Positions 2,560 through 24,399 of a DNA stretch of 32,000 nt are shown here, piece by piece. Source of the DNA: Rubeoparvulum massiliense (lineage in GTDB: Bacteria; Bacillota; Bacilli; Rubeoparvulales; Rubeoparvulaceae). The position numbers and the translations under genes are program-made. The notes beneath the pieces are model-generated. The model was not told the DNA's origin and did not search any database. It worked only from the letters and a program-made list of their open reading frames with translations. Location: assembly GCF_001049895.1 (NCBI RefSeq), contig NZ_CVPE01000006.1:672503-704502 (forward strand), given 5' to 3'. The first letter of the stretch is position 1. Every line of letters starts with the position of its first letter.

Positions 2560-3123
2560 CTATTTGTTTGCACGGGAGACATATTCGCCTGTACGAGTAT
2601 CAATAAGGAGAATATCACCGACGTTAACAAAGAAGGGAACTTGAAGTTTATAACCTGTATCAGTCGTTGCTGGTTTTGAACCACCAGTAGCGGTATCACC
2701 TTTAATACCAGGTTCTGTCTCAACCACTTCCAACTCGACGGTGTTTGGTAATTCGATTCCGAGCATTTCACCCTTATAGGTCATTACCTTCACTTCCATA
2801 TTCTCCTTGAGGAAGTTCAATTCTTCTTCGATTTGAGCACGATTTAATTCAATCTGCTCATAGCTCTCCATATTCATAAAGGTGAATACATCACCGGCAC
2901 TGTATAAGTATTGATACTTATACGTCTCAACTGTAGCTTGCTCCAATTTTTCACCCGCACGGAAGGTTTTCTCTTGTAATTGCCCCGTCTTTAAATTGCG
3001 TAGCTTGGAACGAACAAAAGCAGCACCTTTCCCTGGTTTTACGTGTTGAAATTCGACGACCTGCCATGGCATGCCATCCATTTCAATCGTTAATCCTGTA
3101 CGAAAATCATTAGAAGTAATCAT
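2560..3123 (-). CDS. efp: Translation elongation factor P
   Basis: 187 aa. The N-terminus [47 protein letters not shown] is the canonical EF-P signature, including the KPGKG loop. It follows the M24 peptidase gene as in the B. subtilis yqhT-efp arrangement. Confidence 0.97.
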
Positions 3124-10156: not shown

Positions 10157-10225
10157 TGGAGCTGGATGAACATAAGGGCGGCTGTATAGCTGCCCTATTT
10201 CATTGATCCTAAAAAAGCGGTCAAA

Positions 10226-10257
10226 AAAACAGCTTCAGATGATTCTGAAGCTGTTTT
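10226..10257. terminator. Bidirectional rho-independent terminator (csp / yjcZ-like)
   Basis: AAAACAGCTTCAGA (10226-10239) pairs with TCTGAAGCTGTTTT (10244-10257). A-run and T-run flanks give a U-tail on both strands. Confidence 0.75.
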
Positions 10258-10280
10258 ATACGTTAGTATTCAAACTCGGC

Positions 10281-10481
10281 TTATAGTTTAGTTACGTTAG
10301 CAGCTTGAGGTCCGCGTTCACCTTGAACGATTTCAAAGCTTACTCGTTGGCCCTCATCCAGTGTTTTGAAGCCATCACCTTGGATTGCAGAGAAGTGTAC
10401 GAATACATCGTCCCCACCTTCAACAGCGATAAAGCCATAGCCTTTTTCTGCATTAAACCACTTAACGATACCTTCTTGCAT
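10281..10481 (-). CDS. Cold-shock protein (CspA family)
   Basis: [18 protein letters not shown]...DVFVHFSAI carries the RNP1/RNP2 motifs. The 66-aa product starts at ATG 10481 with AGGAGG 8 nt upstream. The track's 5' extension to 10508 is rejected. Confidence 0.95.
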
Positions 10482-10589
10482 TTTCAATTTCCTCCTAACG
10501 CCTTGCACGTTCGTCGTGCAAAAACCTTGAATTTACTTATCAAACAAGGTGAACTCCATACTGGATTTGAACCCTATCTGACTACGATT

Positions 10590-10618
10590 AATATACTATG
10601 TTTCATGGGAGAAGTCAA
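10590..10618 (-). promoter_or_regulatory. Sigma-A type promoter of the csp gene with a long 5' UTR
   Basis: The reverse strand reads TTGACT-17 nt-TATATT (complements of 10613-10618 and 10590-10595). It is followed by a ~100-nt leader containing the hairpin TTGCACG-acgaa-CGTGCAA, as is typical for csp leaders. Confidence 0.5.
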
Positions 10619-11046
10619 ACCCAATGTGATGCAAAGGCATGAAAAATAACCACTATTTTCTTTAGAAATATCTGGCATCATGAACCTTTTTACAACACTT
10701 TGGTTTTGTATATTATGGTTCAAAATCCAACTTTGATCATCTTGCCTTGTCTTGACTCCATCATAAGTTTTCCCCTGAAATAGCATTTCATACGTATATT
10801 AGTCCACCTAAAGATTTCCATATTGATCATCTGAATTTCTCCTAACTCAAACAATATTTTTCTTACATATCTGTTTTATTTTTACTTACGTGAAATGTAT
10901 CACTTATCAGGAATATTAACGTGTTCCTCCATTTTCGAGCATCCAGAATACTCCATATTTCTTCCTAAATAATGGTGAGTGGTAAGGATTACCAACCCTT
11001 AACCAGAAAAACTCATGTTAGAATGCTAGGCAAGGAGGAGATGTAA

Positions 11047-20553: not shown

Positions 20554-20582
20554 ATTGTATGATAATCATTCTCAATTTGCAA
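20554..20582 (-). promoter_or_regulatory. Promoter of the metal ABC operon with a Fur-type box filling the spacer
   Basis: The reverse strand reads TTGCAA (20577-20582)-17 nt-TACAAT (20554-20559). The spacer contains TGATAATCATTCTCA (20560-20574), one mismatch from the B. subtilis Fur 7-1-7 consensus TGATAATnATTATCA. Confidence 0.55.
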
Positions 20583-20592
20583 TAGTAAAATA

Positions 20593-20610
20593 AAGTTTCG
20601 TACAGGAAAC
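20593..20610 (-). terminator. Weak hairpin terminator after the displaced 3' end of the ABC ATPase gene
   Basis: The reverse strand reads AGTTTC-ctgtac-GAAACT followed by ttatttta, about 35 nt downstream of the reconstructed stop at 20645-20647. Confidence 0.35.
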
Positions 20611-20644
20611 TATTCAAACTATTGAACTTATTTTAACGTAGTTT

Positions 20645-20751
20645 TTACTCACCTTGAATCCACGTAAACGTTGCAAATTTCAATGCTTCATACGTCTGCA
20701 ATTCATCCACTTGGTCTGATGAATCATTCTGGATCATCACACTTCCATTAC
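20645..20751 (-). pseudogene. Displaced 3' end (35 codons plus stop) of the IS-interrupted ABC ATPase gene
   Basis: The reverse strand from 20751 reads (C)GT AAT GGA AGT GTG ATG ATC CAG ... GGT GAG TAA, giving RNGSVMIQNDSSDQVDELQTYEALKFATFTWIQGE*. It joins in frame to ...LLADVKYEV at 22436 once 20752-22435 is removed. Confidence 0.65.
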
Positions 20752-20941
20752 CGATTTTCCGAACGTGAAAGCCCACTATTGTGCGATAGCACACCCTTTA
20801 GGGGTGGGATGAAAGTGAGGTTGGATACGGAATATCACAGGAAACCGTATGTTAGTGGTACTGCAAGTATCCAAAACGTAACCTCACTTTTTTTCATATC
20901 TCATTGCTGTAGTTTTATTAATCAACCGATACAATGTGCAT

Positions 20942-21195
20942 ATGAACGAATACAGACGAACAAACACAACCGTATCATTAAATAAGTATCATTTCGTTTT
21001 TTTGCCCTCGATATAGAAGGAAAATATTCCTTCGTGCTGATGTAGAGAAACGCTTCAAACAGTTGGTACAAGAAATATGTGAAGAATTAGAAGCTGTCAT
21101 TGTTGCTTTAGAGTGTGATAAAGACCATACACATATGTTTCTAAATGCACTGCCAACACTTAGTCCTGCTGGTATAATGGCAAAAAACAAGGGGG
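20942..21195 (+). pseudogene. tnpA: IS200-type Y1 (HUH) transposase TnpA, frameshifted and 3'-truncated
   Basis: MNEYRRTNTTVSLNKYHFVF runs into a stop after the T7 run 20997-21003. The -1 frame continues (C)PRYRRKIFLRADVEKRFKQLVQEICEELEAVIVALECDKDHTHMFLNALPTLSPAGIMAKNKGG, which includes the H-x-H motif. It ends at the tnpB SD, so the C-terminal region with the catalytic Tyr is absent. Confidence 0.8.
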
Positions 21196-21204
21196 GTGAA
21201 ACGT

Positions 21205-22281
21205 ATGTCACAAACAATCACAGTGAAAGTCAAATTGCTTCCAACAAAAGAACAAACCTCTATCTTAACCGCTATGGGCAAAGAATATATCTCTACAATG
21301 AACACACTTGTTTCTGAAATGGTCGCTGAAAAGAAAAGCACGAAAAAGACGACAAAAGATGTCCCTGCACATCTTCCAAGTGCAGTGAAAAACCAAGCAA
21401 TTCAAGATGCAAAAAGCGTGTTTCAAAAAGTGAAGAAAAGTAAATACACGATGATTCCTATCCTCAAGAAACCTGTTTGCGTATGGAATAACCAAAACTA
21501 TTCATTGGACTCCTCTTATATCAATCTACCTTTGATGATGGATGGAAAAGCAAAGAAAGTGCCTATTCGTGCATTGTTGGTGGATAAACATAACCGTACT
21601 TTCGATTTGTTGAAGCACCAATTAGGTACACTTCGTATCACAAAAAAATCAAACAAATGGATTGCACAAATTTCCGTCACCATTCCTAGAAGTGAAGAAA
21701 CAGGAACAAAGACAATGGGCGTAGATTTAGGTTTGAAAGTCCCTGCGGTTGCGGTAACAGAGGATGAAAAGGTCCGTTTCTTTGGGAATGGCAGACAGAA
21801 CAAGTATGTCCGACGTATGTTCAAATCCAAACGCAAGAAATTAGGGAAACTAAAGAAATTAAACGCCATTCGCAATCTCGATGATAAAGAACAACGATAT
21901 ATGAAAGACCAAGACCACAAGGTTAGCCGTGCAATCATCAATTTTGCTAAAGAAAATAAGATTTCTGTCATTCGCTTAGAACAATTAGCGAACATCCGAC
22001 AGACGGCAAGAACAAGCCGTAAAAACGAAAAGAATTTGCACAACTGGTCATTCTATCGCTTGTCTCAATTTATTGAATACAAAGCGAATTTAGCGGGTAT
22101 TAAAGTGGAGTATGTGAATCCTGCCTACACAAGTCAAACATGTCCAAAGTGTTCCGCTAAAAATAAGGCACAGGACCGGAAATATACATGCGAATGTGGC
22201 TTCCAGAAACATAGGGATTTAGTCGGTGCGATGAATATTCGATACGCACCTGTGATTGATGGTCATAGTCAATCAGCCTAA
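21205..22281 (+). CDS. tnpB: TnpB (IS605 OrfB family RNA-guided RuvC nuclease)
   Basis: 358 aa from ATG 21205 (GGGGGGTG SD). The N-terminus TITVKVKLLPTKEQ is typical. The RuvC triad candidates are GVDLG (D), IRLEQL (E) and HRDLVGAMNI (D). Zn finger CPKCSAK...CECG. Confidence 0.93.
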   Translation: MSQTITVKVKLLPTKEQTSILTAMGKEYISTMNTLVSEMVAEKKSTKKTTKDVPAHLPSAVKNQAIQDAKSVFQKVKKSKYTMIPILKKPVCVWNNQNYSLDSSYINLPLMMDGKAKKVPIRALLVDKHNRTFDLLKHQLGTLRITKKSNKWIAQISVTIPRSEETGTKTMGVDLGLKVPAVAVTEDEKVRFFGNGRQNKYVRRMFKSKRKKLGKLKKLNAIRNLDDKEQRYMKDQDHKVSRAIINFAKENKISVIRLEQLANIRQTARTSRKNEKNLHNWSFYRLSQFIEYKANLAGIKVEYVNPAYTSQTCPKCSAKNKAQDRKYTCECGFQKHRDLVGAMNIRYAPVIDGHSQSA

Positions 22282-22451
22282 GATGCTAGATGCACTGTCT
22301 TAGGAGGGGCAATGAGATGCCCTCATCTTGCAGGCTGTTCAAAACAGAAATGGACTGCGAACGCTTAGTCATGCAAGAATCCCACCCGGATACCGTAAGG
22401 TAGAGGGCTTGCGTCTTTAGACGTGGGAGTCTCAAGGACCTCATACTTCAC
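22282..22451 (+). ncRNA. Predicted omega-RNA (reRNA) scaffold 3' part plus 16-nt guide
   Basis: By analogy with characterised TnpB elements, the guide RNA spans the tnpB 3' end and RE and reads into the flank. Structured segments are seen: GAGGGGCA-atgaga-TGCCCTC (22304-22324) and the RE fold 22381-22427. The guide would be GGACCTCATACTTCAC (22436-22451). The 5' boundary, probably inside tnpB, was not determined. Confidence 0.4.
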
Positions 22452-23045
22452 ATCAGCTAGCAATTGAATATCGTCCTTATTATGACTCGCAATGAGAATG
22501 GTCGCTCCTCGCTTCCGTTCCTCTCTTAAAATTGTTCTTACAAGCTGAAGACCCTCTTCATCCAATGCATTGGTAGGCTCATCGAGCACTAATAAGTCAG
22601 GAGCTTCCATCACTGCTTGAGCAATGGCAAGTCGTTGCTTCATACCTAGCGAGTATTTTTTTACAGGACGACGATCTTCTGGCTCCAAACCAACTCGGCG
22701 AATCGCTGCCTTAATCTCTTCCAAGCTAATCTTTTGCTGAATTGATGCAAGAATCTTCAGATTTTCTAGCCCTGTATACTCCTCCCAGAATGCTGGGTTT
22801 TCAATAATCACCCCAATGCTTTCTGGAAAGGAAATATCATGGTATAGTTGCTTTCCATTGAATAGAATCGTGCCACTGCTTGGCTTAATTAAGCCGCTGA
22901 TCGCACGAAATAACATGGTCTTCCCTAATCCGTTCCGACCAAAGAATCCATAGATAGTTGCACGCTCCAATGTTAGATTAATATCTTGGAGAATAGGCTG
23001 TTTCTTAATCACTTTACTAACTTCGATTAACTGTACTACACTCAT
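22365..23045 (-). CDS. ABC transporter ATP-binding protein (BcrA/LanF-like), 3' end replaced by IS right-end sequence
   Basis: Walker A GRNGLGKT, signature YSLGMKQRL, Walker B LLVLDEP, H-loop IASHN. The last 23 codons (LETPTSKDASPLPYGIRVGFLHD*) are encoded by the reverse complement of the IS RE structure (22365-22435). They are therefore not native. Confidence 0.85.
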   Translation of the reverse strand: MSVVQLIEVSKVIKKQPILQDINLTLERATIYGFFGRNGLGKTMLFRAISGLIKPSSGTILFNGKQLYHDISFPESIGVIIENPAFWEEYTGLENLKILASIQQKISLEEIKAAIRRVGLEPEDRRPVKKYSLGMKQRLAIAQAVMEAPDLLVLDEPTNALDEEGLQLVRTILREERKRGATILIASHNKDDIQLLADVKYEVLETPTSKDASPLPYGIRVGFLHD

Positions 23046-23059
23046 TGAAAATCACCTCC

Positions 23060-23677
23060 TCAGATCAGATCCATTTGATTGAAACGCCTGTTTCCTATGA
23101 AGACGATAATAAGTAACCCAATGAGCAAAAAGCTTAGTGAATCGATGAGATGGAATCCGACAATATGATAGTTCAACTCCAAGACCATGGGAGTAAGAGC
23201 AATCGGATCATGCCATGCATACAAGGTATGTACAAAGGGGAGCCAAAGTAACAATCCTTCCAGCATCGGAAGCCATTCAATCAACAGTCCCGCCAATAAT
23301 ACTGAACATAGCTGGAAAACTGTCACAATGACGAACCCATGAAATAGATCCATGAATAGTGAAAGTACATACATACCCCATAAGAGAAGAGTCAACATCA
23401 ATACCTGGAAGAAATAGATCCATAGAATCACCACGATACTATTTCCATCTTCCACAGGTGCCCAGCCCATCATCAAGCCCCCAAAAATTACAACAATCCA
23501 TTGAATCCCAAGATAGATGGACACATGGAGCAATCCCTGCCTTAAATGGCGATATCTTGTACATCGCCAGCATACATATACATATTGGTGAAGTACCAGC
23601 TGTTGAACAGGGCAAAGAGTATGGCGCCAATGATAAGAGGTCATATTTTTTTCAACCGATTCTCCATGATTATTCAC
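23060..23677 (-). CDS. Polytopic membrane protein, probable ABC-2-type permease component (possibly degraded at the 5' end)
   Basis: The C-terminal ~160 aa are strongly hydrophobic with several TM helices. The stop lies 14 nt before the ATPase start, which has a GAGGAGGTG SD. The first ~45 codons are Cys/His/Arg-rich and atypical, and an alternative frame reads as a clean TM helix (see finding). Confidence 0.5.
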   Translation of the reverse strand: MNNHGESVEKNMTSYHWRHTLCPVQQLVLHQYVYVCWRCTRYRHLRQGLLHVSIYLGIQWIVVIFGGLMMGWAPVEDGNSIVVILWIYFFQVLMLTLLLWGMYVLSLFMDLFHGFVIVTVFQLCSVLLAGLLIEWLPMLEGLLLWLPFVHTLYAWHDPIALTPMVLELNYHIVGFHLIDSLSFLLIGLLIIVFIGNRRFNQMDLI

Positions 23678-24050
23678 CCCAGCGAATATCCATTGCTCTG
23701 AAATATCTTTTCCCCAGCCACCATAGAAGCATGATCAATATTAGTAGAAAGATCAAAATTGCCACGGATTGAAGTTGTAGCATCATCAGATGGTATATTA
23801 GAACCAGTAAAAAACAGCCTAATAATTGAGATAACCATCCTTGCAACATGAATAGAAGGAAGAAAAGATCGATCTCCTTCCCATAACCAGTGAAGATAAT
23901 GAGCAGCAGTACAAGGAGATGAAAAGAAAGAGTGAGCGTAACAAGATAGAAGCCTGAACCTCTTAGTTGAAAGCTCCATAGTTGCTCGGGTGTCATGCGT
24001 ACAACAATCTGAATCCGATTGGCCATCCGCGTAAGCTTACTTATATTCAA
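23670..24050 (-). CDS. Hydrophobic membrane ORF (126 aa), possible permease fragment
   Basis: TM-rich (FYLVTLTLSFHLLVLLLIIF; LLGCFLLVLIYHLMML; VAILIFLLILIMLLWWL). No convincing SD. It overlaps both neighbours (8 and 14 nt). Confidence 0.4.
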   Translation of the reverse strand: MNISKLTRMANRIQIVVRMTPEQLWSFQLRGSGFYLVTLTLSFHLLVLLLIIFTGYGKEIDLFFLLFMLQGWLSQLLGCFLLVLIYHLMMLQLQSVAILIFLLILIMLLWWLGKRYFRAMDIRWGE

Positions 24051-24399
24051 GATGACTAAGGGGGTTATAAAAAATAGAAAAAGCGGATATAGAATGATCC
24101 TTATAGACAGACGACAGACCCCTCCACTTTATGAATAAAAGACTACTTAATAACAAAAATACAAGCCAAGCGCCCAGCACCCAAATGCTACCTGTATTTC
24201 CCATCAATAAATTGGTTAACTTATGGCGAAATCCTCCGAGGACATCCAATGCAATATCCACTACCAAATATCCAAGAAAAACACCACCCAAGAGGATAAA
24301 ACGTCCCTGATTGAATACGAAGTAGAGAGAATAGATAAACAGTGCTAAGAGTGCCCCAGTGATAGCGATTAAGAAAGAATAGATCAACTGGTAGAGCAA
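24037..24399 (-). CDS. Hydrophobic membrane ORF (120 aa), possible permease fragment
   Basis: TM-rich (LIYSFLIAITGALLALFIYSLYFVF; ILLGGVFLGYLVVDIAL; IWVLGAWLVFLLLSSLLF). TTG start without an SD. It overlaps the upstream 40-aa ORF by 16 nt in another frame. Confidence 0.4.
   Translation of the reverse strand: MLYQLIYSFLIAITGALLALFIYSLYFVFNQGRFILLGGVFLGYLVVDIALDVLGGFRHKLTNLLMGNTGSIWVLGAWLVFLLLSSLLFIKWRGLSSVYKDHSISAFSIFYNPLSHLEYK

Follow-up and report, generated by a model that had tools for sequence, protein, structure and literature searches.

Locus and features

The window analysed here is a stretch of 32,000 nucleotides (nt) of Rubeoparvulum massiliense (contig NZ_CVPE01000006.1, positions 672,503 to 704,502 of the forward strand), and positions below are counted from its first letter. 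It holds an insertion sequence (IS) of the IS200/IS605 family with a decayed tnpA gene and an intact tnpB gene on the same strand, tnpB lying downstream. On either side of this element are two pieces that appear to belong to one gene for an ATP-binding cassette (ABC) ATPase, an arrangement proposed in an initial annotation made from the sequence alone. The element and the gene are laid out as follows.

20752-22435 (+): whole IS200/IS605-family element of the IS608 type, 1684 bp, made up of the left end (LE), a tnpA pseudogene, tnpB and the right end (RE)
20748-20751 (+): TTAC, target tetranucleotide and left cleavage site (CL), assigned to the host-flank side by analogy with IS608
20942-21195 (+): tnpA, pseudogene of a Y1 HUH transposase by three-frame translation, HUH motif DKDHTHMF retained
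21205-22281 (+): tnpB, intact, predicted RNA-guided endonuclease of 358 amino acids (aa) from an ATG; the open reading frame (ORF) is open from a GTG at 21196
22436-23045 (-): 5' part of the YybJ-like ABC ATPase gene, codons 1-203 and the first base of codon 204, with the Pfam ABC_tran domain
20645-20751 (-): 3' fragment of the ABC ATPase gene, starting with the second and third base of codon 204 and ending with the stop at 20645-20647, reading (R)NGSVMIQ...WIQGE
22365-22435 (-): IS-derived tail LETPTSKDASPLPYGIRVGFLHD, then a stop, of the annotated 226-aa protein WP_076850182.1, by translation

Family and ends of the element

Membership in the IS605 family, as first proposed, is borne out by both genes. 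The NCBIfam model guided_TnpB (NF040570) matches TnpB with 189 bits against a cut-off of 100. For the tnpA remnant transpos_IS200 (NF033573) gives 81 bits (cut-off 55), with only positions 1-80 of its 126-position profile covered. The GC content of the element is 39.8%, compared with 44.4% in the 32-kb window.

Directly 3' of TTAC, the element begins with CGATTTTCC at 20752; its last bases are TCAA at 22432-22435, and the right flank resumes as GGACCTC at 22436. We compared these boundaries with relatives. A genome scan with one genome per species gave 80 related Bacillales loci whose TnpB is 57-86% identical, and the element with 100 nt of flank was used as a BLASTN query against them. On the right, similarity ends at 22435 in almost every locus; on the left, alignments begin at 20752 or 4-5 nt earlier, at a conserved TTAC. 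In other Bacillales genomes, 57 copies end in ...GTGGGAGTCTCAA, and directly beyond that base their sequences are unrelated. In 42 of the 45 related left ends that could be recognised, the left hairpin foot follows TTAC at a distance of 19-21 nt. The element also matches 223 plasmid records, mostly from Bacillus, the best 15 of which all end at 22435 and carry annotated tnpA and TnpB. This boundary pattern exceeds chance, because the 57 genomic relatives and the plasmid matches stop at exactly the same bases. The ends given in the initial annotation are thus those at which other copies end, these copies being relatives in other genomes.

The flanks, ...CCATTAC and GGACCTC..., have no common repeat, so there is no target-site duplication. 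Terminal inverted repeats are absent, and both ends carry subterminal CCCAC...GTGGG palindromes, with guide tetranucleotides (GL and GR, left and right) directly 5' of them and a right cleavage site (CR) at the element terminus. The subterminal parts (IPL and IPR, left and right palindrome) are:

20752-20941 (+): LE, from the single-stranded DNA fold; GL and IPL, then a second structure GGATAC...GTATCC
20768-20771 (+): GL, AAAG, directly 5' of the left foot
20772-20808 (+): IPL, branched subterminal palindrome CCCAC[TGTGC-GATA-GCACA][CCC-TTTA-GGG]GTGGG
22377-22380 (+): GR, GAAT, directly 5' of the CCCAC at 22381
22381-22427 (+): IPR, CCCAC...GCGTC-TTTA-GACG-TGGG, followed by the spacer AGTC and CR, TCAA (22432-22435)

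Measured on the fold, the spacings agree with those first claimed: 20 nt from TTAC to the left foot CCCAC at 20772, and 8 nt (AGTC and TCAA) from the right foot GTGGG, which ends at 22427, to the cleavage point. In IS608, CL is TTAC, 19 nt 5' of the left hairpin foot (PMC3201880), CR is TCAA, 10 nt 3' of the right foot, GL is AAAG and GR is GAAT (PMC3201880; PMC5934647). The pattern AAAG/TTAC and GAAT/TCAA is present here as in IS608, with pairing between guide and cleavage tetranucleotides being a prediction from it. The identification of TTAC at the left flank and TCAA at the end as the IS608 cleavage tetranucleotides is likewise upheld by the sequence, the relatives and the IS608 literature. 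Among 64 aligned right ends GAATC is invariant, and the hairpin GCGNC-TTTA-GNCG covaries. The left palindrome of the relatives is simpler (CCCAnnnCC-TTTA-GGnnTGGG, with an A-T/C-G exchange), and the two palindromes of the present element are branched versions of it.

The interrupted ABC ATPase gene

On the minus strand the ORF at 22365-23045 encodes 226 aa and ends in ...KYEVLETPTSKDASPLPYGIRVGFLHD before its stop. Its product is 100% identical to WP_076850182.1 (P0001 in our protein set) of Rubeoparvulum massiliense. Translation confirms that the ATPase frame runs into the reverse complement of the IS right end, which supplies the last 23 residues (LETPTSKDASPLPYGIRVGFLHD). Deletion of 20752-22435 in silico joins GAG GTC C to GT AAT GGA; the frame continues as RNGSVMIQNDSSDQVDELQTYEALKFATFTWIQGE, and the product ends in ...KYEVRNGSVMIQNDSSDQVDELQTYEALKFATFTWIQGE, with the stop at 20645-20647. 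The frame is therefore restored by this deletion just as first described, and the one correction concerns length: the restored ORF encodes 238 aa, not 239.

The 5' part keeps Walker A, the signature, Walker B and the H-loop (H188), and matches PF00005 ABC_tran at 2.4e-32. G36, N38, G41, K42, D155/E156, H188 and the signature YSLGMKQR are invariant, or nearly so, in the homologue alignment. Identity to the closest homologues, which are 210-223 aa long, is 59-69%, and one of them is named YybJ. The initial annotation called the protein a BcrA/LanF-type ABC ATPase. The ABC part of that label is supported by ABC_tran, and the lantibiotic-protection ATPase model TIGR03740 is the best NCBIfam model, but its 182.1 bits do not reach the cut-off of 309.75 and the closest named homologue is YybJ. 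Because the score is so far under the cut-off, we use 'BcrA/LanF-type' for a resemblance in sequence and for nothing further.

After the H-loop the homologues share the motif K[FY]K[VM]xxGxh, into which the restored KYEVRNGSV fits. Its glycine, G206, is near-invariant in the family; the restored protein has it and only the interrupted form is without it. The proposed fit of the junction to the ABC pattern is therefore supported. With a profile hidden Markov model (HMM) built from 119 homologues, the restored protein is aligned to residue 211 with 358.2 bits and the interrupted one to residue 205 with 351.6 bits, a gain of 6.6 bits. Uninterrupted homologues thus back the restored C-terminus (motif, G206 and HMM) to about residue 211 but offer no counterpart for the last 27 residues. 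The insertion takes away only the last conserved strand, and the chimeric ATPase may or may not have kept its function.

Weighing the readings

It is highly probable that an IS608-type IS has inserted 3' of TTAC in codon 204 of a 238-codon YybJ-like ABC ATPase gene, and that this copy is non-autonomous.

Several observations weigh against this reading. Residues 212-238 of the restored protein have no counterpart in homologues, so only six residues past the junction have homology support, and an open frame of only 33 codons is in itself no rarity where the DNA is AT-rich. A DNA-level empty site of the ABC gene was not present in the data searched, in which the best non-self homologue is 69% identical (5.8 billion proteins; metagenomes were not scanned). 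The single-sequence fold z-scores of the two ends are modest, at -1.5 and -1.8. The plus strand has a negative GC skew across the window (-0.02 to -0.17, over 32 kb only) and most genes are on the minus strand, and because of this the top (plus) strand of the IS appears to be on the leading-strand template. Ton-Hoang et al. are said to have found in 2010 that this orientation is disfavoured for both excision and insertion of IS200/IS605 elements. Finally, the protein and sequence data of this analysis do not decide which of TTAC and TCAA stays in the host.

This last point gives the rival that survives best, the same element at the same position with a 4-nt shift, such that TTAC belongs to the element (20748-22431), TCAA is host sequence and the original gene read ...KYEVLDGSV.... 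Either register deletes 1684 bp, and the junction is RNG (358.2 bits) or LDG (356.3 bits), with the conserved glycine kept in both. All relatives conserve TTAC as well as TCAA, and neither can be assigned by comparison alone. The register used here, with TTAC in the host and TCAA in the element, is taken by analogy from experiments on IS608, which inserts 3' of TTAC, retains TTAC in the donor joint and retains TCAA in the excised circle (PMC3201880; PMC5934647). IS608 has the same CL, CR, GL and GR, and TnpA of the present clade is homologous to IS608 TnpA, which makes the shifted register improbable. The two registers predict different empty sites: ...CCATTACGGACC... if TTAC is host sequence, and ...CCATTCAAGGACC..., i.e. 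...CCAT followed by TCAAGGACC..., if it is not.

A related and apparently intact copy with tnpA and tnpB (locus L081) lies on the B. velezensis plasmid NZ_CP026534.1. Its left flank, at 598-601, is TGAC, not TTAC, and its guide is still GAAAG. In a search for an empty site of this TGAC-flanked copy, no plasmid was found to span its joined flanks.

A less probable rival takes the 226-aa protein as the natural form, the IS having landed at or just past the natural end of the gene and the in-frame continuation beyond it being a coincidence. NCBI does annotate this product as an ordinary protein, the homologues at 210-223 aa are nearer in length to 226 than to 238, and an open frame of 33 codons is not improbable. 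Against these points, the last 23 residues come from an IS right end that is conserved in 57 unrelated genomic contexts, and for this reason the tail is not ancestral to the ABC gene; the tail also lacks the conserved glycine that the restored frame supplies. We consider this rival very unlikely. An assembly artefact, in which a repeat with at least three copies in the genome caused a false join of flanks, is hardly credible: the element is indeed repeated, and two lesions of this copy change the length of a homopolymer (one T-run, one G-run), as sequencing error can do, yet the flanks, joined precisely where the IS ends, rebuild a single reading frame of a single protein family, which is unexpected of a random mis-join.

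Decay of tnpA and sister copies

Compared with intact relatives, tnpA has three lesions: one extra T in the run 20997-21003, which shifts the frame; a deletion of 143 nt, bounded by short direct repeats, with its junction in the A-run 21182-21187; and one G too many in the run 21191-21196. What is missing is the C-terminal third, which includes the helix of the catalytic Tyr. We rejected a first assignment of the catalytic Tyr to an 'RSYF' motif, because Y127 of IS608 TnpA aligns with the Y of IKRYVEQQ; both candidates fall within the deletion. Y127 of IS608 aligns with Y124 of the 132-aa relatives, in the deleted stretch. TnpA homologues are typically 132 aa long, and the 3' region of tnpA is intact in all eight relatives in the tnpA alignment. 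Because tnpA is frameshifted and has lost the catalytic-Tyr region, the window copy is, to judge by its sequence, unable to excise itself and would require TnpA in trans. We infer that it is immobile at present.

At least two further copies of the element, known from their proteins, are present in the R. massiliense genome and share the deletion junction (P0121/P0243 and P0241/P0244). At these other loci P0241 (445 aa) and P0121 (405 aa) consist of the HUH-bearing, Tyr-less N-terminal part of TnpA fused in frame to a full-length TnpB across the 143-nt deletion, and P0243 and P0244 are the 358-aa TnpBs that match the fusion copies P0121 and P0241, respectively. All known R. massiliense copies have the 143-nt deletion, the P0241 fusion being the least decayed form. 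The extra T and extra G of the window copy break the fusion frame seen in its sisters; these homopolymer changes may reflect either true decay or errors of sequencing.

With the N-terminal 84 aa of TnpA as query, no full-length cognate TnpA from R. massiliense was found in the top 120 matches, where intact TnpAs are from other taxa only and at most 89% identical. A cognate helper TnpA is therefore not visible, and a divergent helper may exist. No Rubeoparvulum locus was among those returned by the contig scan of one genome per species, and exact-product look-ups (window TnpB as 358 or 361 aa, P0121, P0241, P0242 and P0243) were empty.

One conceivable account of the multiple copies is that a Tyr-less TnpA'-TnpB derivative spread to at least three loci without classical peel-and-paste transposition by TnpA, through homing by TnpB and its omega-RNA, through recombination or by tethering of TnpB to the IS hairpins via the HUH remnant. 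We regard this as a long shot, the ordinary alternative being that a helper, now lost, mobilised the copies in trans.

Some further features of the tnpA region were recorded. On the plus strand, 21143-21169 in the tnpA remnant (codons LNALPTLSPA) and 22348-22374 in the omega-RNA region form a direct repeat with 23 of 27 positions identical, more than in any of 60 dinucleotide shuffles. It was rejected as a conserved functional feature, distant relatives matching at 9-14 of 27. At 21150-21178 (+), inside the tnpA remnant and just upstream of tnpB, is a promoter-like sequence with CTGCCA, a 17-nt spacer, TATAAT and a TG extended -10. Relatives read GATATTAT or GATACAAT at this site, so the -10 box of the window copy is the better one. 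Two Bacillus loci (L001 and L002) have about 416 nt extra by BLASTN coordinates between tnpA and tnpB (at about 2590-3007 in each locus), an insert that holds a small Cys-rich ORF (VQIICSNCGFEQFMKDHKF...), possibly a passenger gene.

TnpB and the predicted omega-RNA

TnpB has the Pfam domains OrfB_IS605 (PF01385) and Cas12f1-like_TNB (PF07282). Its RuvC-type motifs GVDLGLK, IRLEQL and HRDLVGAMNI, and a CxxC...CxC zinc ribbon (CPKC...CEC), align to solved TnpB/Cas12f chains, an assignment made from the alignment. By eye the protein matches P0242 (WP_048602280.1), an R. massiliense protein likewise of 358 aa. Two RNA features adjoin the gene.

22253-22435 (+): RE with the predicted omega-RNA scaffold, overlapping the 3' end of tnpB and ending at the element boundary
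22436-22455 (+): predicted omega-RNA guide GGACCTCATACTTCACATCA, host sequence directly 3' of RE, with a length of 20 nt assumed

RNAalifold applied to the 64 sequences gives 55 pairs, 27 of them with compensatory changes, and a covariation term of -7.09 kcal/mol. No omega-RNA family of Rfam reached its gathering score. The right end is a conserved structured RNA, as expected of an omega-RNA scaffold. Following published TnpB biology (PMC8612924; bioRxiv 10.1101/2023.03.14.532601), the guide would begin with GGACCTCATACTTCAC... and TTAC would serve as transposon-associated motif (TAM), a pair that would match the restored ABC allele exactly. By the same analogy TnpB and the omega-RNA are presumably active. 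Because guide and TAM equal the restored allele, TnpB would be expected to cut the product of precise excision again.

The observed ends, family, tnpA decay, conserved RNA structure and frame restoration are best explained as follows. An element of the IS605 group with tnpA and tnpB very probably entered as single-stranded DNA directly 3' of TTAC. The ABC gene now runs through 23 codons of the reverse complement of the IS right end to a stop, giving the annotated 226-aa protein. Excision after TTAC and after TCAA would need TnpA in trans, and an omega-RNA with adjacent ABC sequence as guide and TTAC as TAM would direct renewed cutting of the excised allele and its conversion back to the IS-bearing one.

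Comparison with known systems

IS608 (ISHp608 of Helicobacter pylori, IS605 group) likewise has tnpA and tnpB in the same orientation and no terminal inverted repeats. It shares the insertion 3' of TTAC, the right end TCAA and the guide tetranucleotides that immediately precede the subterminal hairpins, AAAG on the left and GAAT on the right, and TnpA of intact relatives aligns to IS608 TnpA structures at 1.4e-29. The distance from CL to the left foot is nearly the same (19 nt in IS608, 20 nt here), whereas TCAA is placed 10 nt 3' of the foot in IS608 and the cleavage point here is 8 nt past the right foot. The present element further differs in its host, a Firmicute, in the side hairpins inserted in both palindromes (left, TGTGC-GATA-GCACA; right, about 35 nt in the conserved RNA scaffold), and in the deleted and frameshifted tnpA of this copy.

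The nearest known elements are IS200/IS605 elements of Bacillales, for example on B. mycoides, B. cereus and B. subtilis plasmids. Along its full length the element is 77-83% identical in DNA to the best plasmid matches, which have the same ends. The NCBI annotation pipeline PGAP labels their genes 'IS200/IS605 family transposase' and 'RNA-guided endonuclease TnpB family protein'. For TnpB, as for the N-terminal 84 aa of TnpA, identity reaches 89%. The 3' region of tnpA is intact in the eight relatives aligned, unlike in the R. massiliense copies with their 143-nt deletion, and two of the Bacillus loci (L001 and L002) have the extra small ORF.

The TnpB/omega-RNA homing systems of ISDra2 and Geobacillus IS605 (Karvelis 2021; Meers 2023) are alike in having a TnpB with RuvC and zinc ribbon and a structured RNA at the 3' end of tnpB and RE that runs into the flank, and the TAM is expected to equal the target tetranucleotide. 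They differ from the present case, where TAM and guide length are predictions from sequence. For the ABC ATPase, the YybJ, ABC-2-type and LanF-like ATPases share the ABC_tran domain, with homologues 59-69% identical, one named YybJ; LanF-like ATPases are set apart by the TIGR03740 score (182 bits against a cut-off of 309.75) and by upstream membrane-type ORFs that match no Pfam or NCBIfam family.

Other features of the window

Upstream of the ATPase, 23060-24399 (-) holds three small hydrophobic ORFs of 205, 126 and 120 aa. No Pfam or NCBIfam family was matched by these ORFs, which presumably encode membrane parts of the YybJ-like transporter. Downstream of the restored stop there is one further feature:

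20594-20611 (-): small hairpin AGTTTC/GAAACT, then TTATTTT, about 35 nt past the stop; possibly a weak terminator

The hairpin is real, but the coordinates first assigned to it (20593-20610) are shifted by one and it is weak. The region 20570-20650 (-) folds with -8.5 kcal/mol (z = -2.0), and the terminator scan did not call the hairpin.

Elsewhere, 10225-10682 (-) matches the Rfam cspA thermoregulator RF01766 in this Firmicute with 84.7 bits against a gathering score of 78. The match overlaps the ORF of a CspA-family cold-shock protein (10281-10508, minus strand), and the conserved coding sequence probably accounts for much of the score.

Significance

The locus adds one more copy of an IS608-like element that is widespread in Bacillales. 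Its ends and target follow known rules, a textbook case that leaves knowledge of the family unchanged. Its main consequence is a correction of annotation: WP_076850182.1 is chimeric, an ABC ATPase that runs into antisense sequence of an IS end, and the original gene can be rebuilt. In a Firmicute, the locus illustrates the IS608 rules (TTAC/TCAA and AAAG/GAAT) cleanly and in a natural setting, and it supplies a predicted pair of TAM and guide (TTAC and GGACCTCATACTTCAC...) for this TnpB clade. A multi-copy lineage in which tnpA is dead and tnpB alive fits the current view that modules of TnpB and omega-RNA outlive their transposases.

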